Part shown: positions 9,104 to 63,764 of the stretch, piece by piece | Position numbering within the stretch: position 1 is the stretch's first letter | Layout: the number at the start of each line of letters is the position of its first letter | DNA from: an uncultured Dehalococcoidia bacterium | GTDB taxonomy: Bacteria; Chloroflexota; Dehalococcoidia; DSTF01; JALHUB01 | Length of the DNA stretch: 64,000 nt | Assembly (NCBI GenBank): GCA_964565775.1 | Contig: CAZMGB010000009.1 | Location: 65,062-129,061 of the forward strand | Reading direction: 5' to 3' | Program-made: the position numbers and the translations under genes | Notes under the pieces: model-generated | The model's database searches: none | What the model was told of the DNA's origin: nothing | Seen by the model: the letters and a program-made list of their open reading frames with translations, nothing else

Positions 9104-9109
9104 AGAGCC

Positions 9110-27500: not shown

Positions 27501-27555
27501 AGGCCACCATGACTTCGACCAGAGTGAAGCCCGCCTCGCCTGCTTTCCCTCTCAT
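24538..27555 (-). CDS. giant (1005 aa) type IV pilin-like protein with class III signal peptide, three tandem ~165-aa domains, Thr/Pro linkers and a central jellyroll-like domain
   Basis: N-terminus [29 protein letters not shown] is a prepilin cleavage/N-methylation site (G|FTLVE). Three repeats ([10 protein letters not shown]...[28 protein letters not shown]...[13 protein letters not shown]...[13 protein letters not shown]) are separated by (T/S)P-rich linkers. Confidence 0.6.
24541..25035 (-). repeat. intragenic tandem repeat unit 3 (~495 bp, ~90% nt identity to the other units)
   Basis: The first ~100 nt (ggcccgtagtagaccttcagcggcacccagtccaggaagaagtcgcggaagg...) recur almost verbatim at about 25924 and 26521. 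Confidence 0.7.
25924..26418 (-). repeat. intragenic tandem repeat unit 2
   Basis: See unit 3. Encodes residues ~380-544 of the pilin-like protein. Confidence 0.7.
26521..27012 (-). repeat. intragenic tandem repeat unit 1
   Basis: See unit 3. Encodes residues ~182-345. Separated from unit 2 by a 34-aa TP linker. Confidence 0.7.
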
Positions 27556-46883: not shown

Positions 46884-47245
46884 CGAGCGACCCTTGTCTT
46901 TCACTTGCTGGCGCACGCTCGTGACATGCAAGACTCACGCGGCCGACCTGGCCGGCGCAGTCTATACCCTTCCACTTCGATTATCGGAGGAAGCGGGCAA
47001 GTCATTATCGACCAGTGGGTATAGGGGGAGGCTCTACGCCCCTCGCGCGGCATGTCGAACAAGGGAGAAGCGTGGTCCTGACCTTCGATTGACATAAGCA
47101 CAGGCGTCGGTGGCGGAGCTTCTCGAGTCCAGCGGCAGGCGGGCGGCGCGTACCCGGGCTCGCGCGGAAGAGCCATCCTTCGGCGGCCGGCGGTTGTCAA
47201 ACCGGTCCGGAGCGCGGATGATGGGGCGTGGAAAGGAGGTGCGTG

Positions 47246-48085: not shown

Positions 48086-48348
48086 AGCACCTCTCTCCAA
48101 GCTCGCCGGGAGGCCCCCTGATGGATGACCGGTGCCCCTTCGCTTCCCGTGCAATTGTACTCCGACCTGTCGACGACCGCTGACCCTTCGCTTCTCGCAA
48201 AGATGTGGTGTGTGAGCACAAGCGCTTGACAGGAGGAGGGGCGCCAGTGTATGCTTGGGCGGACGGTATACGGCAACCGCTTGCCGTATGGCATCGCCCA
48301 GACCGTGTGCGGTACCGGTTGAGGCCCAGGGCCGAGGAGACCTCGCGT

Positions 48349-48900
48349 ATGTCGAACAACCACCCCGACCGCACTACACCGGGCGTAGCTGCCTTCCCCG
48401 ATGTCGTCGTTTTCAGATGCGCGAATAGCTCACGCACGGGCGCGGCGCTCTCATCCGCCGTCGGCCGGCGGCGTCTGGGGGCCGGCCCGGAGTGGCCCAT
48501 TCCGGTACGGGAGGTTGTGCTTCCATGCACGGGAAAGCTGCAGCCGGAGCATCTCCTGAAGGCGTTCGAGGCGGGCGCGGACGCGGTCTGCGTCATTGCC
48601 TGTGCTCAGGACAACTGCCACTACCTCGAGGGAAGCCGGCGTGCGGAGCGGCGGGTCGAGTACGTGAGGGCGCTGCTTGACGAAGTAGGCCTGGGCGGCG
48701 AACGGCTGATGGTTTTCCACCTACCCGGATCGGCGCAGGAGGACATGGCGCTTCTACTCGCCCCACGAGGGAGTGCGCCCAGCACGCGGCTGAGCGAGGA
48801 AGAGCTCGGCTCACGGGTGGCCGCCATACGGGAGAGTGTCATGGCTGGGCTTAACGCTCTGCGACCGAATCCGCTGCGCCAGAGCGAAGCGACCGCCTGA
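48349..48900 (+). CDS. mvhD: MvhD/FlpD-like hydrogenase iron-sulfur subunit D (copy 1)
   Basis: [16 protein letters not shown]...[43 protein letters not shown] is the MvhD Cys pattern (C..C...C..TG....LL.AF..GAD.V.V..C....CHY). ATG at 48349 within track ORF 48205-48900. Confidence 0.7.
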
Positions 48901-48931
48901 CCGTGTGGCGAATCTTGGTGGGACCAGTCGA

Positions 48932-49837
48932 ATGGGAGCAGGATCAACACTCGCCGACGTATTGCGATCGGGGCGACTGGCCGTCACCGCTGAGTGCGTC
49001 CCGCCGCGCTCGGCGGATGCTGAGATCATCAGGAAGCAGGCAGCTTCTTTCCCCCCGGCCTTGGACGCCGTCGTGGTGGTGGACAATCGCGAAGAGATCG
49101 GCGCATCTGCCCTGGCTTGCTCCTCCCTCCTGGCAGCCGAGGGAAAGGAGCCGATCCTCACCATCCTAACGCGCGACCGGAACAGGATCGCCCTCCAGTC
49201 CGATGTCCTCGGCGCAGCGATGCTCGGCGTCAGGAACGTCCTTTGCCTCTCCGGAGACCATCAGTCCCTGGGTGTGTGCCCGGAGGCGGCGGCCGCTTTC
49301 GACATCGACTCCGTCCAGCTGATCCAAGCGCTCACGATGATGCGCGACGAGGGCGTCCTTCTCGGCGACAGGCCGCTACAGTCCAGGCCAGCGCTCTTCG
49401 TAGGTGCGGCGACGCATCCCTACCTTCGCCCGCTGGAACTCGGTCTCATCGGATTGCGAAAGAAGGTGGAGGCGGGCGCCCAGTTCCTGTTCACCCAGCC
49501 CGTGTTCGACGTTGAGGGCTTGACTGAGTGGATGAGCGCCGTGCGGGAGGTCGGCCTTCACGAGCGCACGTACATCATCGCGAGCGTGCGCCCGCTGGCA
49601 AGCGCCGAGCAGGCCGAGGCTCTGCGAACGCAGCGAAGGGCGGCCGCGATTCCCGATGGTCTGATAGCCCGGCTGCGTGACTCCAAAGAACCGGCGCGCG
49701 AGGGCATAGCAATCTGTGCTGAGATCGCGGTTCGGGTCAAGGACATCGAGGGAGTGCGGGGCGTCCACATCCTTTGCGATGGATCGGTTAGGGCCGTGGC
49801 GGAGGTCATTCAGCAGGCGGGTCTTTCTAGCCGATAG
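48932..49837 (+). CDS. metF: methylenetetrahydrofolate reductase, acetogen-type catalytic subunit MetF
   Basis: 302 aa TIM-barrel. LAVTAECVPP...NVLCLSGDHQSLG...AQFLFTQPVFDVE is the MTHFR family signature. No C-terminal regulatory domain, as in Moorella-type MetF. ATG at 48932 within track ORF 48836-49837. Confidence 0.75.
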   Translation: MGAGSTLADVLRSGRLAVTAECVPPRSADAEIIRKQAASFPPALDAVVVVDNREEIGASALACSSLLAAEGKEPILTILTRDRNRIALQSDVLGAAMLGVRNVLCLSGDHQSLGVCPEAAAAFDIDSVQLIQALTMMRDEGVLLGDRPLQSRPALFVGAATHPYLRPLELGLIGLRKKVEAGAQFLFTQPVFDVEGLTEWMSAVREVGLHERTYIIASVRPLASAEQAEALRTQRRAAAIPDGLIARLRDSKEPAREGIAICAEIAVRVKDIEGVRGVHILCDGSVRAVAEVIQQAGLSSR

Positions 49838-49877
49838 GCGGCAGGAGAAGGCATTGCCCGAACGGTATCACATTCCG

Positions 49878-51233: not shown

Positions 51234-52782
51234 GCGCACAGGCGTCGAGGCCCTCCACGCACGCGCCGGCAGGACGCCACAGCGCGCGGTGGAGCGCGAA
51301 GTGCGCGTGACGCCCGACCGCTATCGTAACCCGATCGGCAGGTACAAGGTGCGGCGGAGCGCCGGCTGTCGTTCATGTGGGCAATGCGTGGAGCTCTGCC
51401 CGTACGGTGTTCACGTGAAGCCTCCCGGATACAGCCTGACGCTGCGCCCTCGTGACCACCTGTGCATCGGGCCCAGTTGCGCTGAGACCGATCACTACTG
51501 CATCGAGCACTGCCCGAACCACGCGCTCTCCCTGGCGCGAAATCCCACGGCCGACGCCATCGGCGACCCGCGCTGGACGTCCGACCTGCTTCTCTCCACC
51601 TGGCATCAGGCCGAGACGGGCCACAGCCCGACGGGCGGCCTTGAGTTCCGGCACGGCGCCTCCGGCGGGGGGTTCGACAAACTGCGCTTTCGCTTCCCGG
51701 AGAAGCCCTCGGTCGCGCTGGACGAGAGCGAGATCGACACGGGGCTCGACCTGAACCGGCGCAACGACGACCGGCCGCGTCTGCGCATTGACCTGCCCAT
51801 CTACGGCGGCGGGATGTCATTCGGCTCCGTGAGCATCCATGTGATGCTCGCCAGAGCGCGAGCGGCGACCGCCTGGAACACCTTCACCTGCACCGGTGAA
51901 GGCGGGTACCCACAGCGTCTCGAGCCCTACGACGACCATGTGATCACACAGGTCGCCACCGGGCTGTTCGGCGTGCGTGAGGAGACGATTCAGAGGGTGC
52001 GCGTCGTCGAGTTCAAGTACGCCCAGGGTGCGAAGCCCGGCCTCGGCGGCCACCTCCTGGGCGACAAGAACACGCCCGATGTGGCCCGCATGCGCCAGGC
52101 AGTCGTGGGCAACGCCCTCTTCTCGCCCTTCCCGTTTCACAGCGTCTACTCGGTCGAAGACCACAAGAAGCACCTGGACTGGATCAAGGCAACGAACCCG
52201 AAGGCGCTCGTATCCGTCAAGGTCTCGACGCCTACGGACGTAGACATGGTGGCGGTAGGGAGCTACTACGCCGGTGCCCACATCATCCACCTGGACGGCA
52301 GCTACGGCGGCACAGGCGCTGCGCCCGACATCGCCAAGAAGAACATCGCCATGCCGATCGAGTATGCCATACCGATAGTGCACAAGTTTCTGGTCGCGGA
52401 AGGCATCCGCGACGAAATCGTCCTCATAGCGAGCGGCGGGATACGGACGGCCTACGACGTGCTGAAGTCGATCGCCCTCGGCGCGGACGGCGTCGTGACC
52501 GGCACGGCGGAGCTCGTGGCGCTGGGCTGCATCCGCTGTGGCGGCTGCGAGAGCGGCCGCGGATGCGCGCGGGGCATCGCAACCACCGACCGAGAGCTCA
52601 CGCTCCAGGTGGACATCGACTGGGCAACACAGAGGCTCATCAACCTGTTCGCGGCCTGGCGCGAGGAGTTCGTTGGCGTTCTCCGGCAGTTCGGCATGAG
52701 GAGCATCGCCGAGCTGCGGGGGCGCACGGACTGCCTCTACCACCTGGACTACGCGAAGGAGGGCGAGGCGACCGGTGCTTGA
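51199..52782 (+). CDS. archaeal-type glutamate synthase FMN-binding subunit (GltB domain 2 with N-terminal [4Fe-4S] region)
   Basis: LPIYGGGMSFGSVS...FTCTGEGGYP...KYAQGAKPGLGGHLLG...IASGGIRTAYDVLKSIALGADGVVTGTAELVALGCIRCGGCESGRGC aligns motif-for-motif with the FMN/3Fe-4S domain of GltB (compare 11684-16231). N-terminal CRSCGQCVELCP and CIEHCP motifs. Confidence 0.75.
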   Translation: MSERHSVIYATERTGVEALHARAGRTPQRAVEREVRVTPDRYRNPIGRYKVRRSAGCRSCGQCVELCPYGVHVKPPGYSLTLRPRDHLCIGPSCAETDHYCIEHCPNHALSLARNPTADAIGDPRWTSDLLLSTWHQAETGHSPTGGLEFRHGASGGGFDKLRFRFPEKPSVALDESEIDTGLDLNRRNDDRPRLRIDLPIYGGGMSFGSVSIHVMLARARAATAWNTFTCTGEGGYPQRLEPYDDHVITQVATGLFGVREETIQRVRVVEFKYAQGAKPGLGGHLLGDKNTPDVARMRQAVVGNALFSPFPFHSVYSVEDHKKHLDWIKATNPKALVSVKVSTPTDVDMVAVGSYYAGAHIIHLDGSYGGTGAAPDIAKKNIAMPIEYAIPIVHKFLVAEGIRDEIVLIASGGIRTAYDVLKSIALGADGVVTGTAELVALGCIRCGGCESGRGCARGIATTDRELTLQVDIDWATQRLINLFAAWREEFVGVLRQFGMRSIAELRGRTDCLYHLDYAKEGEATGA

Positions 52783-55384
52783 TGCGGCTGACCGACTGAT
52801 TCGATCACGGGCGGAGATGTTCGACGGGCGCCCGCCCATCATCGCCCCGCGCGCCGCAGACGAGGGGGGATGCGGCGTCACCGGATTCGCCTGCTCCATC
52901 CCCGTGCGCGGCCGCCACATCTATGCACCCTCCTTGCAGATGCACAACCGAGGCAACGGCAAAGGCGGCGGCATAGCTGCCGTTGGGCTCGTCCCGGAGG
53001 ACATCGGCGTGCCACAGGAGGTGCTCGACACGCACTACATGGTGCAGGTCGCCCTGCTCGACCCGTCGGCCCGCGCCGATGTAGAGCGGGAGTGCATCCA
53101 GCCTGTCTTCGATATCGCTCTCTCCACGCGGGCGCCGACCATGGACGACTACCGCGACGTGCCGGGCCTCGAGGTTCAGCCGCCCGATGTCCATCGCTAC
53201 CTGGTGCGCGTCAAGCCCGACGTCCTGCGGGCGTTCGCCGAGAAGAACGGCCTGGGCGATCTTCCTCCGCGTGACCTCGAGGACGAATTCGTCTACCGCA
53301 ACTCCATGCGTCTGAACGAGACCTTCTACGCCTCACTCGGCGACAAGAAAGCATTCGTGCTCTCGCACGGGCGGAACCTCCTCGTCTTCAAGATCGTTGG
53401 CTACGCCGAGCAGATCGTCCAGTACTACCAGCTCGAAGACCTGCACGCACACGTCTGGATCGCCCACCAGCGCTACCCGACGAAGGGCCGCGTCTGGCAC
53501 CCCGGCGGCGCACATCCTTTCGTTGGCCTGAACGAGGCCCTGGTTCACAACGGCGACTTCGCCAACTATCACTCGGTGAGCGAGTACCTCCTTCAGCGCA
53601 ACATCCGCCCGCAGTTCCTCACTGATACCGAGGTCTCTGTCCAGCTCTTCGACCTGTGGTCAAGGGTGTACAAGTACCCGTTGGAGTACGTCATCGAGGC
53701 GCTCGCACCCACAACGGAGCACGACTTTGATCACCTCCCCGAGGAGAAACAGCGCATCTACCGCCGCATCCAGGCGACGCACATCCACGGCTCTCCGGAT
53801 GGCCCCTGGTTCTTCATCATCGCGCGCAGCCTGCCTGACCAGAAGCAGTACCAGTTGCTGGGGATCACGGACACCGCGATGCTGCGCCCGCAGGTCTTCG
53901 CGCTTTCCGAGGGTGACGTTCAGGTCGGGCTCATCTGCTCCGAGAAGCAGGCAATTGACGCCACGCTCCGCAGCCTGGGGGAGGAGGACCAGCGCTTCTG
54001 CCCCATCGCGGACCGATACTGGAACGCTCGCGGTGGCAGCCACACCGACGGCGGCGCATTCGTCTTCACCATTACCGACGAAGGGGACCGCAGGGCTCTT
54101 ACCTGCACAGACAAGTTCGGCCGAGCCGTATCAGTTGGAGGCGCCCGCGTCCGCTGCGACCTCGCCCCGCCTGACATGTCCGGCGGACGCTCCCGCTCGA
54201 TACGCGACTTCGTCCGCACCGCGCTTCAGAGAAGCGATGCCCTCGGCCTGTACAGCCAGACGATCGAGAACCTTCCGGCATGGGAGCCGGGCGGGCTTCG
54301 CGAGTTCTGCAATGCGGTGTGCGAGGAAGCGGACAGCGGCCCGGCGAGAACGACCGCCATCGAGGCGCTCACCATGCTCCACGATCGCCGGTATGACACA
54401 GGCGACAAACGGAGGAGCTCTGTCCTCCGGGTTCTGAACGAGGCGCTGACGCGTCTGTTCGAGGGTGCGCCGCCCTTCGGCTCCGGCGGGAGGGGCCTCC
54501 ACCGGCGCGTAGACTGGGCGACACGAGAGCTCCTCGCAGCACCGCAGCCGGGGGAAGAGGTGCTCGTTGTCAGCGCTGAGCGCTTCCCACCCGAGGGCGG
54601 CGACTGCGATGCCGTCCTCCTGCGCCGCGCCTATGACCTGGGCTGGCGGCGCTTCATCTGCTACGGATATCGCGGTCAGCGTTTCACCGGCTGCGGACTG
54701 GGGCCGGACACGGCCGACGTCCGGATCGACGTCTACGGGAGCTCCGGCGACTACCTCGGCTCCGGCATAGACGGCCTCTCGATCTTCGTGCACGGCAACG
54801 GCCAGGATCAGCTCGGCCAGATCATGAATCGCGGCAAGCTCGTCGTTTACGGCGATGTCGGCCAGACGTTCCTTTACGGCGCGAAGGGCGGCGAGGTGTA
54901 CGTTCTGGGCAACGCCGCCGGCCGCCCCTTGATCAACGCCGTCGGTCGCCCGCGGGTCGTCATCAACGGCACCTGCCTTGACTTCCTCGCCGAGGCGTTC
55001 ATGGCGGGCGACCCTCTCGACGGCGGCGGCTTCGCTATCCTCAACGGCATCGAGTTCGATGATCACGGCCGCCTGATTCCGCAGCCGACGCCTTACCCGG
55101 GCGGCAACCTGTTCTCTCTTGCCTCCGGCGGGGCGATCTACATCCGCGATCCGCGCCGACAGGTCGTCGAGGCGCAGCTCAACGGCGGCGAATTCGTCTC
55201 GCTTTCAGAGGAAGACTGGCGTCTTATCCTTCCCTTCCTCGAGGAGAACGAGCGGCTGTTCGGCGTCTCCGTTGGGGAGCTTCTCACCGTCGAGGGAGAG
55301 CTTCGCGAGCCGGAGGAGGTCTATCGCAAGGTGCGGACTGTGAAGCTTGACGTCCTCGCCGCGCAAGCGGGGAGCGCCATATGA
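52775..55384 (+). CDS. fused class II glutamine amidotransferase domain + glutamate synthase GXGXG (alpha-subunit C-terminal) domain protein (archaeal GltA+GltC-like)
   Basis: N-terminal Ntn-type region around EGGCGVTGFACS. Typical GATase II residues (HQRYPTKG...HPF..NGDFANY). C-terminal beta-helix with repeated G.G motifs (CYGYRGQRFTGCGLG...YGSSGDYLGSGIDG...HGNGQDQLG...YGDVGQTF.YGAKGGEVYVLGNAAG) as in the GltB C-domain. Confidence 0.75.
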   Translation: MLDAADRLIRSRAEMFDGRPPIIAPRAADEGGCGVTGFACSIPVRGRHIYAPSLQMHNRGNGKGGGIAAVGLVPEDIGVPQEVLDTHYMVQVALLDPSARADVERECIQPVFDIALSTRAPTMDDYRDVPGLEVQPPDVHRYLVRVKPDVLRAFAEKNGLGDLPPRDLEDEFVYRNSMRLNETFYASLGDKKAFVLSHGRNLLVFKIVGYAEQIVQYYQLEDLHAHVWIAHQRYPTKGRVWHPGGAHPFVGLNEALVHNGDFANYHSVSEYLLQRNIRPQFLTDTEVSVQLFDLWSRVYKYPLEYVIEALAPTTEHDFDHLPEEKQRIYRRIQATHIHGSPDGPWFFIIARSLPDQKQYQLLGITDTAMLRPQVFALSEGDVQVGLICSEKQAIDATLRSLGEEDQRFCPIADRYWNARGGSHTDGGAFVFTITDEGDRRALTCTDKFGRAVSVGGARVRCDLAPPDMSGGRSRSIRDFVRTALQRSDALGLYSQTIENLPAWEPGGLREFCNAVCEEADSGPARTTAIEALTMLHDRRYDTGDKRRSSVLRVLNEALTRLFEGAPPFGSGGRGLHRRVDWATRELLAAPQPGEEVLVVSAERFPPEGGDCDAVLLRRAYDLGWRRFICYGYRGQRFTGCGLGPDTADVRIDVYGSSGDYLGSGIDGLSIFVHGNGQDQLGQIMNRGKLVVYGDVGQTFLYGAKGGEVYVLGNAAGRPLINAVGRPRVVINGTCLDFLAEAFMAGDPLDGGGFAILNGIEFDDHGRLIPQPTPYPGGNLFSLASGGAIYIRDPRRQVVEAQLNGGEFVSLSEEDWRLILPFLEENERLFGVSVGELLTVEGELREPEEVYRKVRTVKLDVLAAQAGSAI

Positions 55385-55962
55385 GCACGGTAGCAGGAGA
55401 GCTGATCCGCGTGCCCCCCGCTATGGGTGCCTTCGTGCGCGAGGTGGAGGCGGCCTCCGGCGCGAGCATAGCACTCTGTCTCCAGTGTCAGAAGTGCACC
55501 TCCGGCTGCCCCGTGGCCGCGGACGCCGACATCAAGCCGCACGAGATTATCCGGCTCGTCCAGCTAGGGGAGCGAGATGAGGTCCTTTCGAGCCGCATGA
55601 TCTGGGAATGCACGTCGTGCGAGACGTGCTGGACGCGCTGTCCGCAAGCGGTGGCACTCCCGGCGGCTATCGATGCCCTGCGCAGGCTGTCGCGCGCCGC
55701 CGCGAAGGTCACTCCGGAGACCAGAGTCCCAGCTTTCAACGACATCTTTCTCGGCTCAGTGCGGCAGATGGGCCGGGTGTATGAGATAGGGCTCATGGCG
55801 GCGTTCAAGCTCCGCACGAAGGACCTCCTTCAGGACTTTAACAAGCTGCCGGCGATGCTTCGCAAAGGCAAGCTGGCGCTGCTGCCCGTCTTCGTACGCG
55901 GCCGTTCGGACCGAACGCGCCTGTTCCGGCGCATCGAAGGGTCCGGAGGTGAGAAGCGATGA
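55381..55962 (+). CDS. hdrC: heterodisulfide reductase subunit C (two [4Fe-4S] motifs)
   Basis: CLQCQKCTSGCP and CTSCETCWTRCP ferredoxin-type motifs in a 193-aa protein. Overlaps the upstream gene by 4 nt. Confidence 0.8.
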   Translation: MSTVAGELIRVPPAMGAFVREVEAASGASIALCLQCQKCTSGCPVAADADIKPHEIIRLVQLGERDEVLSSRMIWECTSCETCWTRCPQAVALPAAIDALRRLSRAAAKVTPETRVPAFNDIFLGSVRQMGRVYEIGLMAAFKLRTKDLLQDFNKLPAMLRKGKLALLPVFVRGRSDRTRLFRRIEGSGGEKR

Positions 55963-56867
55963 GCTACGTCTTCTATCCCGGCTGCTCGCTTGAGTCGACC
56001 GCGAAGAGCTATCACGTTTCCACGAAGGCCGTCGCCCGCGCGCTGGGGCTGGAACTGCCGGAACTGCCCGACTGGATCTGCTGCGGCTCGACGGCCGCTC
56101 ACCAGTCGAACTCCCTGCTGTCGCTGGCGCTTCCGGCGAAGAACTTGCTCGCGGCCTCCGGCAAGACAGTGGCCGTGTGCTGCGCCGCTTGCTACAGCCG
56201 CCTGAAGGTGGCGAATGACCGGATCGCCAACGATGCGGGCACCCGTTCCCGGGTCGCCGATGCCCTGGGCAGCGACTACGACGGCTCTACGCCGGTGAAG
56301 CACCTGCTCGAGATCCTGAGGGACGAGATCGGGCTCGACGAGATCGCCAAGCGCGTGTCGAAGCCGCTGGCGGGCCTGCGTGTCGCAGCCTACTACGGCT
56401 GCCTGCTCTTGCGTCCACCGGAAGTAATGCGGTTCGACGACCCGGAGAACCCGACGCTGCTGGATAACGTCCTTGCCGCCGCTGGCGCTGAGCCTCTGCA
56501 ATGGCCTCACAAGACGGAGTGCTGCGGCGCGAGCTACTCGATCACGAAGGTCGAGATCGTGCAAAGGCTGTCGTATGACATCCTGGCGATGGCCCGCGAC
56601 TCGGGGGCCGACTGCATTGCCGCAGCCTGTCCCCTCTGTCAGCTCAACCTGGACATGCGGCAGAGAGAGATCGAGGTGCGGTTCGGCGACAGACTGGGCC
56701 TGCCCGTGCTCTACTTCACCCAATTGCTCGGCCTGGCTCTCGGCCTCAAGCCGAATGAGCTCGGGCTGAGCAGCCTGATAGTGGACCCCATGCCGCTCTT
56801 GGCGAAGAGGGGCCTCCTGGCGCACGCCGGGTTGAAGGCGGCGGCGCCCGCGAACGTACCGGAATAG
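55959..56867 (+). CDS. hdrB: heterodisulfide reductase subunit B (two CCG domains)
   Basis: YPGCSL...WICCGSTAAH and YYGCLLLRP...ECCGASYS...CPLCQLN are the duplicated CCG-domain Cys patterns of HdrB. Confidence 0.85.
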   Translation: MSYVFYPGCSLESTAKSYHVSTKAVARALGLELPELPDWICCGSTAAHQSNSLLSLALPAKNLLAASGKTVAVCCAACYSRLKVANDRIANDAGTRSRVADALGSDYDGSTPVKHLLEILRDEIGLDEIAKRVSKPLAGLRVAAYYGCLLLRPPEVMRFDDPENPTLLDNVLAAAGAEPLQWPHKTECCGASYSITKVEIVQRLSYDILAMARDSGADCIAAACPLCQLNLDMRQREIEVRFGDRLGLPVLYFTQLLGLALGLKPNELGLSSLIVDPMPLLAKRGLLAHAGLKAAAPANVPE

Positions 56868-56871
56868 ACCG

Positions 56872-59800
56872 ATGAAACAGGACATACCGACCGGCGCAGT
56901 GCTCGTCTACGGGGCAGGGATAGCAGGCATTCAGGCGTCGCTCGACCTGGCCGAATCCGGCTTCAAGGTGTACCTCGTCGAGCGCTCGCCCGCTATCGGC
57001 GGCAGGATGTCCCAGCTCGACAAGACTTTCCCCACCGGCGACTGCGCGATGTGCATTCTGTCGCCGAAGCTCGTCGAGTGCGGGCGCAACAAGAACATCG
57101 AGATCATCACCCTCGCCGAGATGGAGAGCATCACCGGCGAGCCCGGCCAGCTTGACGTGCGCATCAGGAGGAATCCGCGCTACGTCGACCTCCAGAAGTG
57201 CAACGCCTGCGGTGACTGCGCCGAGGTCTGTCCAGTATCCCTGCCCAGCGAGTTCGACCGGGGGCTCGGCGAAAGGAAGGCTATCTTCCGCCCCTACCCG
57301 CAGGCGATCCCCAACGTGTACGGCATCTCGAAGGCCGACGGCACCGCACCCTGTAGACACGCATGTCCGGCGGGCGTGAACGCGCACGGCTATGTCGCGC
57401 TGGTCGGCCAGGGCAGGTTCAAGGAAGCCTACGACCTCATCCGCGAGCGCTGTCCGCTGCCGGCAGTCTGCGGCCGAATCTGCCAGCACCCCTGCGAGGA
57501 CCAGTGCAATCGAGGCGATATAGACGAGCCTGTCGCCATCCGCGACCTGAAGCGCTTCGCCACCGACTGGGTCTATACCAACCGGGAGCAGTTTGCGGAG
57601 GAAGCCGAAACCGCATCGCCCTGGAGCGAGCTGCGCGAAGAGAAGATCGCGATCATCGGCGGCGGGCCGGCCGGCCTTACGGCCGCCCACGATCTGAGCC
57701 GGATGGGGTACAGGGTGACGATCTTTGAGGCGATGCCGTTCCTGGGTGGGATGCTGCGCCTCGGCGTGCCCGAGTACCGGCTCCCGAGGGATGTGCTCGA
57801 CTTCGAGATAGACCAGCTACTCAACGACCGCATCGAGGTGAGGTTGGACTGCCGGATCGGGCGCGACGTGACCCTGGACGGCCTCCGCAGCGACGGCTAC
57901 GCCTCGATATTCATCGCCTGCGGCGCTCACAGGAACCTGCGACTGGAAGTGGAGGGGAGTGAGTACGAAGGTGTAGTTTACGGGCTCGACTTCTTGAGGA
58001 GCGTGAACCTGGGCGAGCAGGTTCGCGTCGGGAAGCGAACGGCCGTGATCGGCGGCGGAAACGTGGCGATGGACGCCGCGCGCGCCGCCCTGCGGCTGGG
58101 CTCGGATGAAGTGACGATAGTCTACCGCCGCTCGCGCGCCGAAATGCCGGCGCTCGATGAGGAGGTCCATCTCGCCGAGGAAGAGGGAGTCAGGTTCCAC
58201 TTGCTGGCCGCCCCGGTCCGCATGATCGGCGATGATAGGGGCTCCGTCGTCGCGATGGAGTGCCTGCGGATGAAGCTGGGTGAGCCGGACGCGAGCGGCC
58301 GGCGGCGACCCGAGCCGATCGAGGGGTCGAACTTCACCATCGAGGCGGACACCGTCATCATCGCGATAGGGCAGACGGCTGATCTCGATGGCCTGCCATT
58401 GGGCTCGCGCGGAAGGATCGACTGTGACGACTCGCTTGCCACGGAGATGCCGGGCGTGTTCGCCGGCGGGGACGTGGTCCTGGGGCCGGCCTCGTTCGTC
58501 GACGCGATGGGGCACGGTCACCGCGCCGCCGAGGCGATCCACCGTTATCTCCGCGGCGAAAGCGTAAGGGATGCGGCGCCGGCCGGCGGGGCCGCTGACG
58601 AGAAGCTCGCCCCGAACCCTCTGCCGTCCGCCCCGCACCAGCCTCGACGTCCCATGCCGCAGTCGCCGGTCGACGAGCGCAAACGGGACATGCGCGAGAT
58701 CGATCTCGGCTATTCCGAGGAGGATGCCATCGCCGAAGCGAGGCGCTGCCTCAACTGCGGGCTCTGCTCCGACTGCCGCCTCTGCGAAAAGGTATGCGAT
58801 CCCGGCGCCATCTTCCACGACATGCGGCCGGAATCGGAGGTGCTTCGGGTCGGCGCCGTCATCCTCACCCCCGGCTCCGAAGAGATGCAGCCGTCCCTTC
58901 GCGGGGAGTACGGCCACGGCCGCTACGACAACGTGCTTTCGTCTGTCCAGTTCGAGCGCATGCTCAGCGCTTCGGGGCCGACGGAAGGCACCGTGCAGAG
59001 ACCGTCCGACGGCCAGCCCGTGAAGCGGATCGCCTTCATCCAGTGCGTCGGCTCGCGCGATAGCGCTCGCGGCAACGGCTACTGCTCCTCGATATGTTGC
59101 ATGTCGGCGACGAAAGAGGCACTCGTCGCAATGGAGCACATTCCGGGGCTCGAGATTGCCATCTTCTGCATGGACATCCGCGCCTTCGGTAAGGAGTTCG
59201 ACCGCTACGTCGACCGGGCGCGCAGCGAGCACGGCGTGCGATACGTCCGGGCTATCCCCTCGCGCGTGGTCGAGATGCCGGGCACGAAGAACCCGCGTGT
59301 GCGCTATTTCGACGAGCACGGGGACGACCGTCAGGAGGAGTTCGATCTTGTGGTCCTTTCGGTCGGCATGAAGCCCGGCGCCAGCGTCACGGAGCTCGCC
59401 GAGCGGCTCGGGATTGACCGCAACCAGTTCGGCTTCTGCGAGACGGATCGGCTTACGCCGGTGGTCTCGTCACTGCCGGGTGTCTTCGTGGCCGGCGCCT
59501 TCCAGGAGCCGAAGGACATACCGGAATCGGTGGCGCAGGCCAGCGCCGCAGCGGCCAGCGCAATGGAGCTGCTTGTGCGCGGGCGGGGCACGCTGGCCCG
59601 CCGCCACGAGTATCCCGAGGAGCGAGACGTCACGGACGAAGAGCCGCGAATCGGCGTCTTCATCTGCCACTGCGGGCACAACATCGCCTCGGTGGTGGAC
59701 GTCGAGGCGGTCGCGCGCGAGGCGGCGGAGCTGCCAAACGTCGTCTACTCCGAGACCGATCTCTTCACGTGCTCCGACACCAGTCAGGCCCGACTCAAAG

Positions 59801-61326
59801 ACCTGATCCTCCAGCATCGCCTGAACCGAGTCGTTATCGCCTCGTGCTCGCCGCGCACGCATGAGGTGCTGTTCCAGGAGACGCTCCGGGAGTCTCGGCT
59901 GAACCCCTACCTCTTCGCGATGACGAACATCCGTGATCAATGCTCGTGGGTGCACCGCGACGATCCGGCTCGGGCTACGGAAAAGGCTTGCGACCTCATG
60001 CGCATGGCGGTGGGGCGCGCACGATGGCTTCGCTCGCTGGAAACCGGGCAGGTCCCGATCACGCGCGCGGCGCTCGTCCTCGGGGGCGGCCTGGCAGGCA
60101 TGACCGCTGCGCTCTCGATAGCGGACCAGGGCTTCGAGGTGCATCTCGTGGAGAAGGAGCCCGAGCTGGGCGGCAACCTTCGCTTCATTCACTACACGCT
60201 GGAGCGAGATGACATCCAGGAGTTCGCTGCGGACCTGGTCGGCCGCATTCGCTCCCATCCGCTCATCACCCTCTACCTCGATTCGAAGGTGACGGAGGTT
60301 TCCGGCCACGTCGGGAACTTCAGGTGCCAGATCGAAGGTGCCGACGGCGCGAAGACGGTCAACCACGGCGTGACAATCATCGCCACCGGCGGCGTCGAGC
60401 GGCCGACCGAACAGCACCTTCGCGGCAGGCACGAGCGCGTGGTCACCCAGCGGGAGCTGGAGGCGCAGTTGGCCGGCGGCGGCTTGCCCCCGGAGCTGGG
60501 CGAACGGCCGACCGTCGTCATGATACAGTGCGTCGGATCGCGAACGGAGGAGAACCCCTATTGTAGCCGCGTCTGCTGCTCGGAGGCCGTCAAGAACGCG
60601 CTGGCGATCAAGGCGCAGCGGCCAGAGGCGCAGGTGATCGTCCTCAACAAAGACATCCGCACCTACGGCTTCCGCGAGACGTATTTCCAGATGGCGCGCC
60701 AGGCCGGGGTACTGTTCATCCGCTATCCGGAAGAGCAAGAGCCCGAGACATTCGATGACCAGGGCCCGGTTGTGCGCGTCACGGACGCGAGCACCCGCCG
60801 CCAGCTCCTGCTGCGGCCCGACCTGCTCGTGCTGAGCACAGGAATCGCACCCGCGCCCGACAACCCGGAGCTGTCGGCGATCTTGAGGACGTCGCTGACT
60901 GCCGACGGCTTCTTCCTCGAAGCGCACCCCAAGCTCCGTCCGGTGGACCTGGCGAGCGAGGGCGTATTCGTCTGCGGGCTCGCGCACTCGCCGCGCTTCA
61001 TGGACGAGACGATCGTCCAGGCCCGGGCAACGGCCGGCCGCGCCGCCACGATCCTGTCGCGCCCGCACCTCAAGATCGGCGGCCAGGTGGCCCGCATCGA
61101 TCCTCTCGAATGCACTGCCTGCCTGACGTGCATCAAGGTGTGCCCCTATGACGCGCCCACGATCAACGACCGGCAGAAAGTGGAGATTCAGGCCGCGAAG
61201 TGCATGGGCTGCGGTAGCTGTGTCGCTTCCTGTCCGGCGAAGGCCATCCATCTACAACACCAGGAAGAGCGACAGCTCATCGCCATGCTCGATGAGTTGC
61301 TTGCCGTTCCCAAGGTGACGGCATGA
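56872..61326 (+). CDS. hdrA: HdrL-like large heterodisulfide reductase A homolog: HdrA N-domain + ferredoxin + GltD/NfnB-like NAD(P)H:FAD domain + two HdrA-type Cys-cluster domains + C-terminal 2x[4Fe-4S]
   Basis: 1484 aa. HdrA start VYGAGIAGIQASLDLAESGFKVYLVE...GDCAMC. Inserted GltD small-subunit-like region (CRHACPAGVNAHGY...CGRICQHPCEDQCNRG...IAIIGGGPAGLTAAHDL...). HdrA motifs CVGSRDSARGNGYCSSICC and CVGSRTEENPYCSRVCC. Ferredoxin motifs CNACGDC..CP, CLNCGLCSDCRLC, CTACLTCIKVCP, CMGCGSCVASCP. Confidence 0.8.
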   Translation: MKQDIPTGAVLVYGAGIAGIQASLDLAESGFKVYLVERSPAIGGRMSQLDKTFPTGDCAMCILSPKLVECGRNKNIEIITLAEMESITGEPGQLDVRIRRNPRYVDLQKCNACGDCAEVCPVSLPSEFDRGLGERKAIFRPYPQAIPNVYGISKADGTAPCRHACPAGVNAHGYVALVGQGRFKEAYDLIRERCPLPAVCGRICQHPCEDQCNRGDIDEPVAIRDLKRFATDWVYTNREQFAEEAETASPWSELREEKIAIIGGGPAGLTAAHDLSRMGYRVTIFEAMPFLGGMLRLGVPEYRLPRDVLDFEIDQLLNDRIEVRLDCRIGRDVTLDGLRSDGYASIFIACGAHRNLRLEVEGSEYEGVVYGLDFLRSVNLGEQVRVGKRTAVIGGGNVAMDAARAALRLGSDEVTIVYRRSRAEMPALDEEVHLAEEEGVRFHLLAAPVRMIGDDRGSVVAMECLRMKLGEPDASGRRRPEPIEGSNFTIEADTVIIAIGQTADLDGLPLGSRGRIDCDDSLATEMPGVFAGGDVVLGPASFVDAMGHGHRAAEAIHRYLRGESVRDAAPAGGAADEKLAPNPLPSAPHQPRRPMPQSPVDERKRDMREIDLGYSEEDAIAEARRCLNCGLCSDCRLCEKVCDPGAIFHDMRPESEVLRVGAVILTPGSEEMQPSLRGEYGHGRYDNVLSSVQFERMLSASGPTEGTVQRPSDGQPVKRIAFIQCVGSRDSARGNGYCSSICCMSATKEALVAMEHIPGLEIAIFCMDIRAFGKEFDRYVDRARSEHGVRYVRAIPSRVVEMPGTKNPRVRYFDEHGDDRQEEFDLVVLSVGMKPGASVTELAERLGIDRNQFGFCETDRLTPVVSSLPGVFVAGAFQEPKDIPESVAQASAAAASAMELLVRGRGTLARRHEYPEERDVTDEEPRIGVFICHCGHNIASVVDVEAVAREAAELPNVVYSETDLFTCSDTSQARLKDLILQHRLNRVVIASCSPRTHEVLFQETLRESRLNPYLFAMTNIRDQCSWVHRDDPARATEKACDLMRMAVGRARWLRSLETGQVPITRAALVLGGGLAGMTAALSIADQGFEVHLVEKEPELGGNLRFIHYTLERDDIQEFAADLVGRIRSHPLITLYLDSKVTEVSGHVGNFRCQIEGADGAKTVNHGVTIIATGGVERPTEQHLRGRHERVVTQRELEAQLAGGGLPPELGERPTVVMIQCVGSRTEENPYCSRVCCSEAVKNALAIKAQRPEAQVIVLNKDIRTYGFRETYFQMARQAGVLFIRYPEEQEPETFDDQGPVVRVTDASTRRQLLLRPDLLVLSTGIAPAPDNPELSAILRTSLTADGFFLEAHPKLRPVDLASEGVFVCGLAHSPRFMDETIVQARATAGRAATILSRPHLKIGGQVARIDPLECTACLTCIKVCPYDAPTINDRQKVEIQAAKCMGCGSCVASCPAKAIHLQHQEERQLIAMLDELLAVPKVTA

Positions 61327-61796
61327 TCGAATCCGACCGCCGCTCAACGGCCGAAGCCGTGGCCGATCGAGAGTGCGAGATCGTGGCATTCTGCTGCAAT
61401 TTCTGCGCCTATGCCGCGGCCGATCTCGCCGGCGCGAGACGCATGCAATACCCGGCGAACGTGCGCATCGTACACGTGCCCTGCACGGGCGAGGTCGAGG
61501 TGGAGCATCTCCTCGCTGCCTTCGAACGGGGAAGCGACGGAGTTCTGGTGGCGGGCTGCCTCGAACGGGGATGCCACTTCGTCGAGGGGAACCTGCGCGC
61601 GAAGCGTCGCGTCGAGGCCGTGCGGCAGACGCTCGACGAGATCGGCCTCGGGCGAGAGCGCCTGCGGATGGTCAATCTGTCCGCCTCGGAAGCGCCCACA
61701 TTCGTAGCGCGGATAAGGGAAATGGTAGACACGATAAGCAGCCTTGGCCCTAACCCGCTACGCACATCATCAACCAGGGAGCGGAGCCCGAAATGA
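61323..61796 (+). CDS. mvhD: MvhD/FlpD-like iron-sulfur subunit D (copy 2)
   Basis: EIVAFCCNFCAYAAADLAGARRMQYPANVRIVHVPCTGEVEVEHLLAAFERGSDGVLVAGCLERGCHF is a full MvhD Cys motif set. Start overlaps the hdrL stop (ATGA). Confidence 0.8.
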   Translation: MIESDRRSTAEAVADRECEIVAFCCNFCAYAAADLAGARRMQYPANVRIVHVPCTGEVEVEHLLAAFERGSDGVLVAGCLERGCHFVEGNLRAKRRVEAVRQTLDEIGLGRERLRMVNLSASEAPTFVARIREMVDTISSLGPNPLRTSSTRERSPK

Positions 61797-62461
61797 TAGT
61801 AGCAAGTCGAAAGCCGATCTCGGAGATCAAGGGTGCGCTTGCGCGCCACGATAAGGTTCTATTCGTGGGCTGCGGGACGTGCGTGACCGTATGCCTTGCC
61901 GGCGGAGAGCGCGAGGTAGGCATCATGTCCTACGCCATGCGCATGGCGCGGCGGCTGGAGGGACGGCCCCTCGAGATCGAACAGGTCACGATCGAGCGCC
62001 AGTGCGAAAACGAGTTCATCCAGGAGCTCGCTCCCGCAGCGGAACGCAACGAGGCGATCCTGTCGTTCGGGTGCGGCGCCGGCGTGCAGGCGATCGCCGA
62101 GCGATTCCCGGAGAAGCCGGTCTACGCGGCGCTCAATACGCAGTTTCTCGGCATCCTCGAGGAGCAGGGGGTCTGGACGGAGAAGTGCCTGGGGTGCGGG
62201 TCGTGCATGCTCTCGGACTTCGGCGGCATCTGCCCGATTACGCGCTGCGCGAAGCGTCTGCTGAACGGCCCTTGCGGCGGTTCGAGCGAGGAGCGATGCG
62301 AGGTCGACCCCGAGCGACCCTGCGCCTGGCAGCTCATCTACCGCCGGCTGAAGGCCATCGGCCAGCTAGACAACCTGGAACGCATCGTCCCGGCGAGAGA
62401 CTGGCGGCCGAGCTGGCACGGCGGTGCGCGAACGGTGGTGCGAGAGGAGCACCGGATCTAG
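61793..62461 (+). CDS. metV: methylene-THF reductase-associated zinc/FeS subunit MetV
   Basis: VLFVGCGTCVTVC...ILSFGCGAGV...EKCLGCGSCM...ICPITRCAKRLLNGPCGGS...RPCAW is the Cys-rich pattern and the LNGPCGG motif characteristic of MetV. Confidence 0.7.
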   Translation: MIVASRKPISEIKGALARHDKVLFVGCGTCVTVCLAGGEREVGIMSYAMRMARRLEGRPLEIEQVTIERQCENEFIQELAPAAERNEAILSFGCGAGVQAIAERFPEKPVYAALNTQFLGILEEQGVWTEKCLGCGSCMLSDFGGICPITRCAKRLLNGPCGGSSEERCEVDPERPCAWQLIYRRLKAIGQLDNLERIVPARDWRPSWHGGARTVVREEHRI

Positions 62462-62550
62462 CTTCGAGCCTTTCACGGACCTTATCAGGGCACCACTATC
62501 GCACATCCGGGACGGCGGAGCCGAGCGTCGACCGGGCGATGAACCCTCCC

Positions 62551-63546
62551 CTACAGATCCCAGTAGCTGTGCAACCGCTGGAAGTCTATGGTGCCGCTGT
62601 TGGCTATGTTGTCGGCCTCTATGCCGGCTTCTTCGGCGGCGGCCACGGCATTGAGACCGCCGTACAGGATGACACCCACCTTGTTCAACCCGACAGGGAT
62701 CTGGCAAACGGGCTGGCTGGTGTAGCCCATGACAACCACCCCGCCGATATTTGATTCCCTGAGCTTCTCCACCAGCTCTTCGGCCATCGGCTTCGCCGCC
62801 GCCGGTATCTCCCGGAAGTTGGCGAGTATCATGCCTTCGCCCCTGGTCGCGGCGTCACGCACGGCGGTCATGTGCGCCCTGATGTACGCCAGTGATGGGT
62901 CCAGGGAGGAGCCGGCGTAGTGGATTATGGCCACGAACCTTCGAGGCTTGGAGTTGTGGATCTCCAGTATTCCCCCGAACCGAGAGTCCATGGGAATGCC
63001 GGCCTTCAGTAGCACGCCGTTGATGGTGGCGCTACAGACCGTCGCTAGCCCCATCTGGCCCTCGGGCACGATCACGTCGCCCAGCTTGTCGCCCTCCTCT
63101 GCCACCGCCACCATGTGACTGACGCCTATGTCCGCCAGGAAAGCGTCCTTCATCGCTGACAGGGCCTTCTTGAACTTGTCTTTGGGGAAGAGGGAGGTGT
63201 TGATAATCACCTCGCCGCTGCGTTGGACAGGGTCAAACGTCGTCTGGAAGGCGAGGGAGGCGATCCTCTCGATGACAAGACCGACCTGCTCCGGCGCCAG
63301 CGCGAACCTCAGCTCCTCCAGCCCCTTGGCGGTGAGGACTCTGCCGTCTCTCCCCAGGGACTGGGTGAAGCCCCGCTCATCGGTGATTCTGAAGTGATAC
63401 CTCACTGACCTCTCGCTAAGGTTGATGCCGTGATTCTTCAGCGCGCGGGCGATGCTGATCGAGCCCAGTGGCTCCGGTGACTCGCTCAGCACCCTCAGGA
63501 TCGCGACGATCTTTCTCTCAGTGTCGCGGGCTTCGCTTTCCAGCAT
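62551..63546 (-). CDS. nrpR: NrpR-like nitrogen regulatory repressor (wHTH + DUF128/NRD domain)
   Basis: ERKIVAILRVLSESPEPLGSISIARALKNHGINLSERSVRYHFRITDERGFTQ resembles the N-terminal wHTH of archaeal NrpR. It is followed by one ~250-aa domain with a glycine-rich C-terminal half (GGVVVMGYTSQPV...ILYGGLNAVAAA) like the NRD/DUF128 domain. ATG at 63546 within track ORF 62551-63588. Confidence 0.5.
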   Translation of the reverse strand: MLESEARDTERKIVAILRVLSESPEPLGSISIARALKNHGINLSERSVRYHFRITDERGFTQSLGRDGRVLTAKGLEELRFALAPEQVGLVIERIASLAFQTTFDPVQRSGEVIINTSLFPKDKFKKALSAMKDAFLADIGVSHMVAVAEEGDKLGDVIVPEGQMGLATVCSATINGVLLKAGIPMDSRFGGILEIHNSKPRRFVAIIHYAGSSLDPSLAYIRAHMTAVRDAATRGEGMILANFREIPAAAKPMAEELVEKLRESNIGGVVVMGYTSQPVCQIPVGLNKVGVILYGGLNAVAAAEEAGIEADNIANSGTIDFQRLHSYWDL

Positions 63547-63764
63547 GCAGTTTCCTCCGCCAGCCGACATCCAGCGTGGTAGCTCCACCCCTGCACCGGG
63601 CTGGCAATCGACGCTATTGTAGCGCGTTTCTTGCGTCCCCCCAAGCCCGCGCGCACCAGCGGTCGCTCGGCGGGTCGGTCTTCAGGGTTCGGGCTCGAAG
63701 GCCGACTCATATAGGTGGACGTAATGAAGTCGGGTTTCCCTCCGGAGTATGGAGAGGTGCAGCA

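Follow-up and report, generated by a model that had tools for sequence, protein, structure and literature searches.

The name HdrL was introduced for Desulfobacterium autotrophicum HRM2 (Strittmatter 2009, PMC2702500), and an HdrL has also been described in Syntrophobacter fumaroxidans (Sedano-Nunez 2018, PMC5947623). Here we analyze an hdrL gene of an uncultured Dehalococcoidia bacterium (Chloroflexota), located in a 64,000-nucleotide stretch of contig CAZMGB010000009.1 (assembly GCA_964565775.1, positions 65,062 to 129,061 of the forward strand), which is referred to below as the window. In the related Mvh-Hdr complex, an arm formed by HdrA's N-terminal and C-terminal domains together with MvhD serves the cysteine pair, the flavin adenine dinucleotide (FAD) and the clusters HA4 and HA5/HA6 of the partner protomer, bringing the [2Fe-2S] center of MvhD and the shuttle cluster HA3 in turn to that cysteine pair and FAD. 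From this FAD, the high-potential electron passes via HA4 to HdrC/HdrB, and the low-potential electron via HA3 to HA5/HA6 (PMC13580544). The two HdrA protomers are fused in BamE of class II benzoyl-CoA reductase, where the first thioredoxin reductase (TrxR)-like core, TrxR1, carries Cys59-Cys62 and Lys280 and is bifurcating, while TrxR2 has Gln768 and is structural (10.64898/2026.04.10.717634). For fused archaeal HdrA proteins, a complementarity between Cys197 and the N-terminal domain has been noted, suggesting that such a fusion acts as its own heterodimeric partner (PMC9012536).

Two further systems bear on the NAD(P)H side of the protein. In StnC, the relevant domain is an insertion (aa 102-565) in a larger iron-sulfur (FeS) scaffold, and its FAD has been shown to be non-bifurcating, transferring the electrons of NADPH one by one to another flavin, which bifurcates (PMC10482914). 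In the MetFV-HdrABC-MvhD complex of Moorella thermoacetica, HdrA is reported to be the site of NADH oxidation and to contain two FAD, and a second acceptor has been postulated for this type IV methylenetetrahydrofolate reductase (MTHFR) (Mock 2014, summarized in PMC8760232 and PMC5861303).

The hdrL gene of the window occupies positions 56872..61326 of the + strand as an open reading frame (ORF) running from ATG to TGA, which encodes 1484 amino acids and is free of internal stops. The best structural match of the product is the solved HdrA of methanogens (5odc_A, E=9e-184, in four stretches), while the center of the protein matches NfnB-like proteins among solved structures. HdrA and HdrA2 models of Pfam and NCBIfam land on the protein in four to five separate stretches, with scores below the curated NCBIfam cut-offs (HdrA2, 977.7 bits versus 1100; HdrA, 723.7 versus 1400). 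An HdrA/GltD-like fusion followed by mvhD is the arrangement for which the name was defined in D. autotrophicum (PMC2702500), so that the HdrL-type label given in the initial annotation is appropriate, and the protein is a member of the named HdrL family, known since 2009. Every element listed in that annotation is present: the HdrA FAD motif, the ferredoxin insert, the GltD-like region, two HdrA clusters and the C-terminal 2x[4Fe-4S] domain. Their arrangement differs from the one described there. Two HdrA modules do not flank the GltD-like cassette, which instead sits inside module 1, between both Cys motifs of HdrA's inserted ferredoxin domain, and the two modules, rather than being equivalent copies, are complementary halves of one functional unit.

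To align the first HdrA module, the central region was excised and both halves were aligned separately with solved HdrA. The features of this module are as follows.

56893..57183 (+): first part of the module 1 FAD core (residues 8-104), aligning without gaps to 5odc_A 144-246.
57043-57054 (+): the Cys58/Cys61 pair (DC58AMC61), in which C58 corresponds to HdrA C194 and C61 to C197, also without gaps.
57184..57342 (+): first half of the inserted ferredoxin domain (residues 105-157), with the motif C110xxC113xxC116xxxC120P, aligning to 5odc_A 247-290.
58759..58821 (+): second half of the inserted ferredoxin domain (residues 630-650), with C632xxC635xxC638xxxC642P, aligning to 5odc_A 291-314 with a 6-residue insertion.
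58822..59586 (+): second part of the module 1 FAD core (residues 651-905), aligning to 5odc_A 315-568.
59113-59115 (+): Lys748, which aligns with HdrA K409.

Residues 8-157 and 621-905 are thus collinear with HdrA 144-568 and comprise a TrxR-like FAD core with its inserted ferredoxin domain. The core contains the HdrA-type FAD Rossmann motif GAGIAG at residue 14 and an HA4-type cluster motif, C725-x12-C738-x3-C742C743. Selenocysteine is absent from this HdrL, Cys61 occupying the corresponding place. Neither the N-terminal domain nor the C-terminal ferredoxin domain of HdrA is found in module 1 in the alignment to solved HdrA. The two CxxCxxCxxxCP motifs of its inserted ferredoxin domain are separated by the GltD-like insertion of approximately 466 residues.

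The insertion is defined by two features.

57343..58758 (+): permuted GltD/NfnB-like NAD(P)H:FeS cassette (residues 158-629), matched by NF009410 and by solved structures.
58123-58137 (+): NADPH motif YRRSR (residues 418-422), downstream of GGGNVA at 394.

The assignment of the central region to the GltD/NfnB family is borne out by NF009410, which matches residues 155-650 with 571.8 bits against a cut-off of 516; the GltD families score below their cut-offs (TIGR01317, 206.7 versus 447.7; TIGR01318, 290.8 versus 482.95). Within the cassette, Fer4_20 covers residues 158-237, the FeS region that includes Lys227, and Pyr_redox_2 covers residues 258-549. Two GGGPAG motifs had been reported for it; the actual pair consists of GGGPAG at 263, the FAD motif, and GGGNVA at 394. 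The stretch GGGNVA...VYRRSR (394-422) is a NADPH-type motif, in agreement with the pyridine-nucleotide site proposed for the protein. The module was also described as complete, and it is, yet it is circularly permuted: NfnB 44-462 corresponds to HdrL 158-563, whereas NfnB 5-42, where the first cluster motif begins ('...EAxRCLxC'), corresponds to HdrL 592-629. A Pro/Ala-rich linker (564-591) precedes this relocated N-terminal segment, which contains C626/C629. The permuted order is common to StnC and to the NfnA of the Nfn-Bfu type, as HdrL 154-639 is collinear with 8oh5_C 97-574 and 9bov_A 97-575. At the border, the six-Cys run C626xxC629xxC632xxC635xxC638xxxC642P provides exactly the number of ligands required for the first two positions of the cassette motif and the second motif of the ferredoxin domain. 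A count of the ligands in HdrL arrives at nine [4Fe-4S] clusters, alongside three FAD and a single NAD(P)H site.

The best cassette matches are Caldicellulosiruptor NfnA (9bov_A, 436 bits), archaeal NfnA (9n5u_A, 421) and Sporomusa StnC (8oh5_C, 381), followed by the weaker Thermotoga NfnB (4ylf_B, 364), Pyrococcus NfnL (342) and GltD (213). Lys227 aligns with StnC Lys170, an unusual ligand of the FAD-proximal cluster that is a Glu in NfnB, while Cys200, shared with NfnB and missing from StnC, is kept in HdrL. By these sequence characters, the cassette is closer to the non-bifurcating StnC/Nfn-Bfu type than to NfnB or GltD.

The remainder of the protein forms a second HdrA module with three predicted regions.

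59647..60057 (+): HdrA N-terminal domain of module 2 (residues 926-1062), the predicted shuttle-cluster domain, aligning to HdrA 8rvu_a 3-140.
60058..61071 (+): second TrxR-like FAD core (residues 1063-1400), aligning to 8rvu_a 141-243 and 329-560.
61072..61281 (+): C-terminal 2x[4Fe-4S] ferredoxin domain (residues 1401-1470), matching Pfam Fer4 families and 8rvu_a 561-656.

Over residues 916-1484 the protein follows HdrA 3-243 and 329-656 collinearly, and the inserted ferredoxin domain (HdrA 244-328) is missing from module 2 in the alignment to 8rvu_a. The N-terminal domain contains C932, C934, C967, C992 and C1024; the core contains GGGLAG at 1071, the cluster motif C1220-x10-C1231-x3-C1235C1236 and Lys1241, at the position equivalent to Lys748; and the Cys motifs of the 2x[4Fe-4S] domain lie at 1414-1424 and 1444-1454. 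The Cys pair is also missing from this module, LERDDIQE standing in place of FPTLDCSMC. Each accessory domain of HdrA is therefore present exactly once in HdrL and split between the modules, unlike in an orthodox HdrA protomer. Since module 2 holds the whole arm and module 1 holds the Cys pair, the N5 lysine, HA4 and HA5/HA6, the view that HdrL is one asymmetric bifurcation unit, a single-chain version of the HdrA homodimer, is well supported.

To assess conservation, genomes were scanned at one genome per species; 367 of them contain an HdrL relative, and the best 80 loci were taken for comparison. From these loci, 75 homologues are single ORFs of 1417-1534 aa with 46-85% identity over the full length, and more than 120 database clusters match HdrL full-length at 63-85% identity. 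The closest relatives among the 80 loci belong to Chloroflexota (84% and 75% identity). Other carriers include Acidobacteriota (Bryobacteraceae), Myxococcota, Planctomycetota, Desulfobacterota-type lineages, Poribacteria and Thermoleophilia, together with one Spirochaetia metagenome-assembled genome (MAG) and one MAG labelled as an archaeon; homologues in Desulfobacteraceae and Syntrophaceae MAGs are full-length at approximately 48% identity (e.g. L075 and L077, Desulfobacteraceae). Mean identity to the window protein is 50-70% and similar across all HdrL regions.

Of the 50 Cys, 38 are unchanged in 76 homologues. Cys58 and Cys61 are both present in 75/76, and C110/C113/C116/C120 and the Cys residues of the module 2 N-terminal domain in 76/76; all six Cys of 626-642 and the eight Cys of the C-terminal domain are likewise invariant. 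Conservation of the bifurcating-FAD ligands, proposed as a check on the assignment, is observed: Lys748, the counterpart of HdrA Lys409, occurs in 75/75 homologues. Position 1241 is K in 47 homologues, R in 26 and Q in 3, and position 227 is K in 73/76 and E in 3/76. The YRRSR motif is found in most homologues and is replaced by ACLE(S/K)R in a subclade formed by Bryobacteraceae, Myxococcales and the loci L060, L033, L031/L034 and L047, which suggests that these proteins may be NADH-specific. Because full-length single-ORF homologues and invariant residues extend across phyla, the fusion is ancient and under selection, as judged by comparison of the sequences.

The initial annotation raised the possibility that the two HdrA-like halves are separate genes collapsed in assembly. 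The same data address whether separate hdrA and gltD genes were joined into the long ORF through an error of assembly or gene calling. Frameshift-split matches were seen in two related long-read MAG loci (L021 and L027) and no support for the artefact was found. The same length and domain order recur, uninterrupted, in 75 independent assemblies at 46-85% identity, and the borders of the insert fall within a ferredoxin Cys motif, a placement that the collapse of separate genes would not generate. An artefact is thus of practically negligible probability and is rejected on these comparative data; with no internal stop and 75 homologues that are likewise single full-length ORFs, hdrL is a genuine single gene. 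The long shadow ORFs on the opposite strand are explained by the G+C content of the window (approximately 65%), and homologues at the hdrL locus are found in the + frame only.

The anatomy suggests a route for electrons. In the reading that we consider somewhat more probable than its alternatives taken together, HdrL would be a bifurcating core in which NADPH is the donor via the cassette, and the FAD of module 1 bifurcates toward MetFV and GltB-like acceptors encoded in the same operon. The anatomy, the ligand conservation, the permutation and the operon context are observed directly, while the roles of the clusters are transferred from solved homologues, and the direction of flow and the acceptors are inferences. 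Module 1 would provide the working flavin site, with FAD, Lys748 at its N5, Cys58/Cys61, an HA4-type cluster on the way to HdrC/HdrB, and also the inserted ferredoxin domain. The cassette spliced into this ferredoxin (HA5/HA6) domain would hold FAD, two [4Fe-4S] clusters and the NADPH site. Module 2 would act as a mobile arm, comprising the N-terminal domain with the shuttle [4Fe-4S] cluster and the C-terminal 2x[4Fe-4S] domain that docks MvhD, and its second FAD core is probably mainly structural. NADPH would be oxidized at the cassette FAD, itself non-bifurcating, and single electrons would pass through the cassette clusters to the inserted-ferredoxin clusters HA6/HA5, then to the shuttle cluster HA3 and the module 1 FAD. 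Bifurcation at this FAD would send the high-potential electron via HA4, HdrC and HdrB toward MetFV (methylene-tetrahydrofolate, methylene-THF) and, in this lineage, also toward the split GltB-like glutamate-synthase module, while a stronger, low-potential reductant would be formed at the same time.

NADPH is placed as the mid-potential donor because the same type of cassette acts in this way in Stn, because Moorella HdrA oxidizes NADH, and because the NAD(P)H site is the only reductant site in the operon, while MetF and the GltB-like module consume electrons. Several observations weigh against this assignment. In each of the two solved Hdr-type systems, Mvh-Hdr-Fmd and the class II benzoyl-CoA reductase, the low-potential exit is the inserted ferredoxin domain and the entry is the MvhD side, so that the proposed flow would use both arms in the opposite sense. 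The methanogen residues His68/Asp71 of MvhD contact the HdrA Cys pair, and Leu80/Gly83 are found in their place in the window MvhD. The window protein carries Lys1241, which would allow a second active flavin, and the change of nucleotide motif in the ACLE(S/K)R subclade makes the specificity non-uniform over the family. The transfer of electrons from HdrB to MetFV or to GltB-like proteins is a guess, for which BamD to electron-transferring flavoprotein is the sole analogy. No member of the HdrL family has been purified or solved, and no biochemistry has been published for it.

The position of the cassette exactly on the domain that serves as low-potential output in Mvh-Hdr-Fmd and BamE raises a different reading, in which the canonical Hdr wiring is kept: electrons would be bifurcated at the module 1 FAD, with NADP+ accepting the low-potential ones where the inserted-ferredoxin branch ends and the substrate of HdrBC accepting the high-potential ones. 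Run in reverse, this would be a confurcation and would solve the endergonic oxidation of methyl-THF (~-200 mV) with NADP+ (-320 mV). Chadwick et al. proposed such NADPH-linked confurcation for HdrA-NfnB fusions of the anaerobic methanotrophic archaea ANME-1, and a large number of HdrL homologues come from Desulfobacterota in which the Wood-Ljungdahl pathway could operate in the oxidative direction. However, a glutamate-synthase-like module can only consume electrons, no high-potential HdrBC acceptor is known in these bacteria, NADP(H) is the mid-potential couple at the StnC-type cassette in Stn and Nfn-Bfu, and the HdrA of Moorella oxidizes NADH. We therefore regard the canonical wiring as rather unlikely here.

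The protein could also contain two bifurcation sites. In this case, the cassette FAD would bifurcate as in NfnB, with one MvhD-type [2Fe-2S] protein in the role of NfnA, and the HdrA FAD would perform a second bifurcation or confurcation. An arrangement of this kind has been suggested for the HdrA-NfnB fusions of ANME-1, class II benzoyl-CoA reductase offers an example of coupled bifurcation modules, two MvhD-like genes belong to the operon, and Cys200 is kept as in NfnB. On the other hand, 73/76 homologues share with StnC a Lys at the ligand position of the proximal cluster, where NfnB has Glu, the operon lacks an NfnA/PyrK-like gene, and the best cassette scores are those of non-bifurcating Bfu-type modules, which makes two sites very improbable. 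The preferred reading retains a single bifurcating flavin in module 1, fed by NADPH.

The operon is tightly packed in the order mvhD2-metF-gltBa-gltBb-GATase/GXGXG-hdrC-hdrB-hdrL-mvhD-metV, hdrL being the eighth gene. The ATG of hdrL follows the hdrB stop by 4 nt, and its TGA overlaps the mvhD ATG as ATGA. The following elements surround it.

48226-48255 (+): promoter-like site TTGACA-18-TATGCT, upstream of mvhD2.
48346..48900 (+; ORF as listed from 48205): mvhD2, the first gene of the operon (Pfam FlpD, E=2.5e-24).
48836..49837 (+): metF-like methylene-THF reductase gene, start uncertain (Pfam MTHFR, E=8.6e-21).
49716-51233 (+): gltBa, encoding a divergent paralogue of GltB (Pfam Glu_synthase/Fer4 families of the trio).
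51199-52782 (+): gltBb, encoding an N-terminal 2x[4Fe-4S] domain and a flavin mononucleotide (FMN) domain.
52775-55384 (+): GATase+GXGXG fusion of 869 aa (Pfam GATase_6, GXGXG), with an N-terminal nucleophile (Ntn)-type Cys33 after a propeptide.
55381-55962 (+): hdrC (Pfam Fer4_17).
55959-56867 (+): hdrB, with two CCG domains (Pfam CCG x2).
61323-61796 (+): mvhD (FlpD, E=5e-48).
61793-62461 (+): metV (DUF5981, E=7e-38).

TIGR03290 and TIGR03288 match hdrC/hdrB below their cut-offs. MvhD keeps all six cysteines of the MvhD of M. marburgensis (Methanothermobacter), and a candidate counterpart of the methanogen His68/Asp71 pair was rejected, the equivalents being Leu80/Gly83. MvhD2 is divergent, with four of the six MvhD cysteines and no CCxxC motif; more than 20 related loci retain its gene upstream of metF. 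The ORF at 61879-62754 was rejected as a shadow frame inside metV. Searches found no NfnA/PyrK-like and no NuoE/NuoF-like genes in the operon, and no Rfam family, including riboswitches, in the window or upstream of the operon. The NAD(P)H site of HdrL is the sole substrate-level reductant site encoded in the operon.

The co-localization of the six families metF, metV, hdrA, hdrB, hdrC and mvhD is the gene set of type IV MTHFR, and by gene content the operon represents a type IV, Hdr-coupled methylene-THF reductase cluster with glutamate-synthase-like genes as an extension. Among the 80 loci, mvhD adjoins hdrL in 57, hdrCB in 59 and metV/metF in 45, counts that are lower bounds given the many short contigs. 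Desulfomonilaceae-type loci contain hdrL-hdrC-hdrB only. Up to three HdrA/HdrL-like genes in a row were observed in Desulfomonilaceae loci. In the Syntrophaceae-type MAG loci L035, L038, L039, L042, L048 and L051, hdrL-mvhD is followed by another HdrA-like gene, a second mvhD and metV-metF. A gene for an NrpR-family regulator (62551-63588, - strand) adjoins the operon of the window. NrpR, the nitrogen repressor of Euryarchaeota, senses 2-oxoglutarate; this neighbor was seen at 0/80 related loci and is not used as functional evidence. The presence of NrpR had pointed to an archaeal genome, a reading rejected because both the closest relatives and the gene content (GGDEF proteins, Suf operon, type IV pili) are bacterial.

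The three glutamate-synthase-like genes raise the question of whether the cassette supplies the GltD partner that they lack, as the initial annotation claimed. GltBb has CxxCxxCx5C in place of the canonical 3Fe-4S motif of GltB and is more conserved than HdrL, its best 120 database matches being 72-90% identical. The trio occurs in 25/80 hdrL loci with its order unchanged, in at least five phyla (Chloroflexota, Myxococcota, Acidobacteriota, Planctomycetota and Thermodesulfobacteriota), and no GltD of its own was found beside any trio examined (the window, the 25 loci and L082). In the Acidobacteriota MAG loci L023, L030 and L052, the trio lies directly upstream of hdrL without hdrC/hdrB; these are the sole three homologues with Glu, as in NfnB, at position 227. 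Conversely, the Dehalococcoidia loci L002/L006/L015 have hdrCB and no trio nearby. In the Dehalococcoidia MAG GCA_050010555.1, the trio is alone on contig JBEKKV010000001 (L082), without GltD, and mvhD-metF-hdrCB-hdrL-mvhD-metV is on another contig, JBEKKV010000004 (L015), so that the trio and the hdrL unit are separable. When sampled from GltBb, two of three homologues lie within the same operon, one of them with a canonical gltB-gltD pair directly upstream. The window also contains a canonical GltB at 11684-16231 (+; 1515 aa, 1874 bits to PRK11750) with no GltD adjoining, and the following ORF, 16355-17638, encodes an alkyl-sulfatase-like protein of the metallo-beta-lactamase (MBL) fold.

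The linkage in at least five phyla and the lack of GltD beside the trios examined are in favor of the claimed partnership; the presence of the insert in HdrL proteins without a trio (L002/L006/L015 and all Desulfomonilaceae/Syntrophales-type loci), the MAG with trio and hdrL apart, and the GltD score of 213 versus 436/381/364 bits, together with values under the GltD NCBIfam cut-offs, speak against it. As far as these sequence comparisons go, partnership with the GltB-like proteins is a reasonable but unproven idea, and is not why the insert exists. In its strongest form, the cassette would be the missing small subunit of the split GltB and, by way of its two clusters, hand electrons from NAD(P)H straight to GltBa/GltBb at their ferredoxin domains. 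The HdrA parts would then be a scaffold or take part in a separate MetFV reaction, with glutamate synthesis proceeding without bifurcation. The three loci that retain the trio without hdrCB would fit this, as would the absence of an own GltD and the linkage in five phyla. Yet the insert is identical in HdrL without a trio, the two units are on different contigs in one MAG, GltD is a far more distant match of the insert than Nfn-Bfu NfnA, StnC or NfnB, and the bifurcation hallmarks of module 1 are all invariant in trio-linked homologues too. A role solely as a GltD subunit is thus improbable. If HdrL instead bifurcates at module 1, the ten-gene unit may form an Hdr-type bifurcating supercomplex in which NAD(P)H, oxidized on HdrL, drives two reductions that are biosynthetic and exergonic, one giving methyl-THF from methylene-THF and the other glutamate from 2-oxoglutarate and glutamine, and yields a low-potential reductant, a tentative extension that we consider possible, though on balance unlikely. 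No literature linking HdrABC to glutamate-synthase-like proteins was found, and the ten-gene operon is undescribed in the searchable literature.

If correct, such a supercomplex would be the first bifurcating glutamate synthase, built on a split archaeal-style GltB, and would explain both the missing GltD of the split GltB and the coupling partner of type IV MTHFR. HdrL proteins are widespread, and some are abundant in the proteomes of sulfate reducers. The anatomy translates into a specific wiring diagram, with Lys748, Cys58/Cys61 and Lys227 as residues open to testing, and bears on the second substrate of Hdr-coupled methylene-THF reductase and on the electron feed of split GltB-type glutamate synthases. 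Chloroflexota, Acidobacteriota, Myxococcota and Planctomycetota of soil and peat frequently carry the operon, and its function may thus be relevant to how carbon and nitrogen are assimilated there.

Other regions of the window contain a Suf Fe-S assembly operon (5489-10764, +; SufC, SufB, SufD and SufS after an ArsR-type regulator), which thus shares the window with the Fe-S-rich hdrL operon. A 1004-aa ORF without a Pfam or NCBIfam match (24538-27555, -) lies in a cluster resembling type IV pilus or type II secretion systems, with PilB-, PilC- and PilM-like neighbors. The ORF at 36854-41296 was considered as an HdrL paralogue and rejected, being a PAS/GGDEF signaling protein. Together with 42924-46931 (-), this + strand ORF forms a convergent pair of multi-PAS/GGDEF proteins of 1480 (36854-41296) and 1335 aa, with C-terminal response-regulator/phosphodiesterase-like regions.

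Compared with the HdrL proteins of D. autotrophicum and S. fumaroxidans, the window protein is likewise a large soluble HdrA/GltD-like fusion with an NAD(P)H site and mvhD next to it, often near hdrBC. The partners differ: Dsr or Fdh genes are found there, whereas MetFV and the split GltB trio are found here. The pseudo-dimer logic and the permutation of the cassette are not described in the corresponding papers, and the likeness to HdrL1-3 is judged from their description. In the case of BamE, for which the comparison draws on the preprint text and residue numbering, both proteins have two TrxR-like cores, of which the N-terminal one bears the Cys pair (59/62 versus 58/61) and the N5 Lys, while the C-terminal one lies off the branch point in BamE and probably also in HdrL. 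Each also comes with an adaptor of the MvhD kind and a partner resembling HdrBC, which accepts the high-potential electron in BamE and would do so in HdrL, and the seven [4Fe-4S] clusters of BamE agree with the HdrL count minus the cassette. Judged by that text, HdrL looks in overall plan like BamE with the cassette added. Unlike HdrL, BamE has no GltD-like cassette, receives its input from BamGHI, delivers its low-potential output to the tungsten enzyme BamBC, and carries Gln at the N5 position of the second core, where HdrL has Lys1241.

In ANME archaea, an NfnB insert (HdrA9-11) and a fused HdrA (HdrA3/4) occur in separate proteins (Chadwick 2022, PMC9012536), whereas these features are combined in HdrL; moreover, the module bearing the N-terminal domain comes first in HdrA3/4 and second in HdrL, and HdrL is bacterial. 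StnC of Sporomusa ovata and the Bfu NfnA share with HdrL the permuted order, the EAxRCLxC segment after the Rossmann domains, the Lys ligand of the proximal cluster and the insertion into an FeS scaffold, but their host is NuoG/FdhF-like, with a HydBC-like FMN bifurcating partner, while the host here is HdrA. NfnB/NfnL (4ylf_B, 5jca_L) and GltD (6s6s_G, 2vdc_G) resemble the cassette in fold and cofactors, namely FAD, two [4Fe-4S] clusters and an NADPH Rossmann motif whose 2'-phosphate motif is of the RRS type; in contrast to NfnB, the HdrL cassette is permuted, has Lys for Glu and lacks an NfnA partner. The Moorella type IV MTHFR, judged here from its published description, co-localizes the same six gene families, and differs in that the HdrL of the window is a 1484-aa double module accompanied by a second mvhD and three GltB-like genes, in a Chloroflexota-like host that is not a known acetogen. 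HdrL itself has been known since 2009, NfnB-like inserts and self-complementary fused HdrAs of ANME since 2022, and a fused HdrA dimer has been solved; new here are the residue-level wiring, the recognition of a StnC-type permuted cassette and the broad conservation of an operon that joins MTHFR and split-GltB genes.

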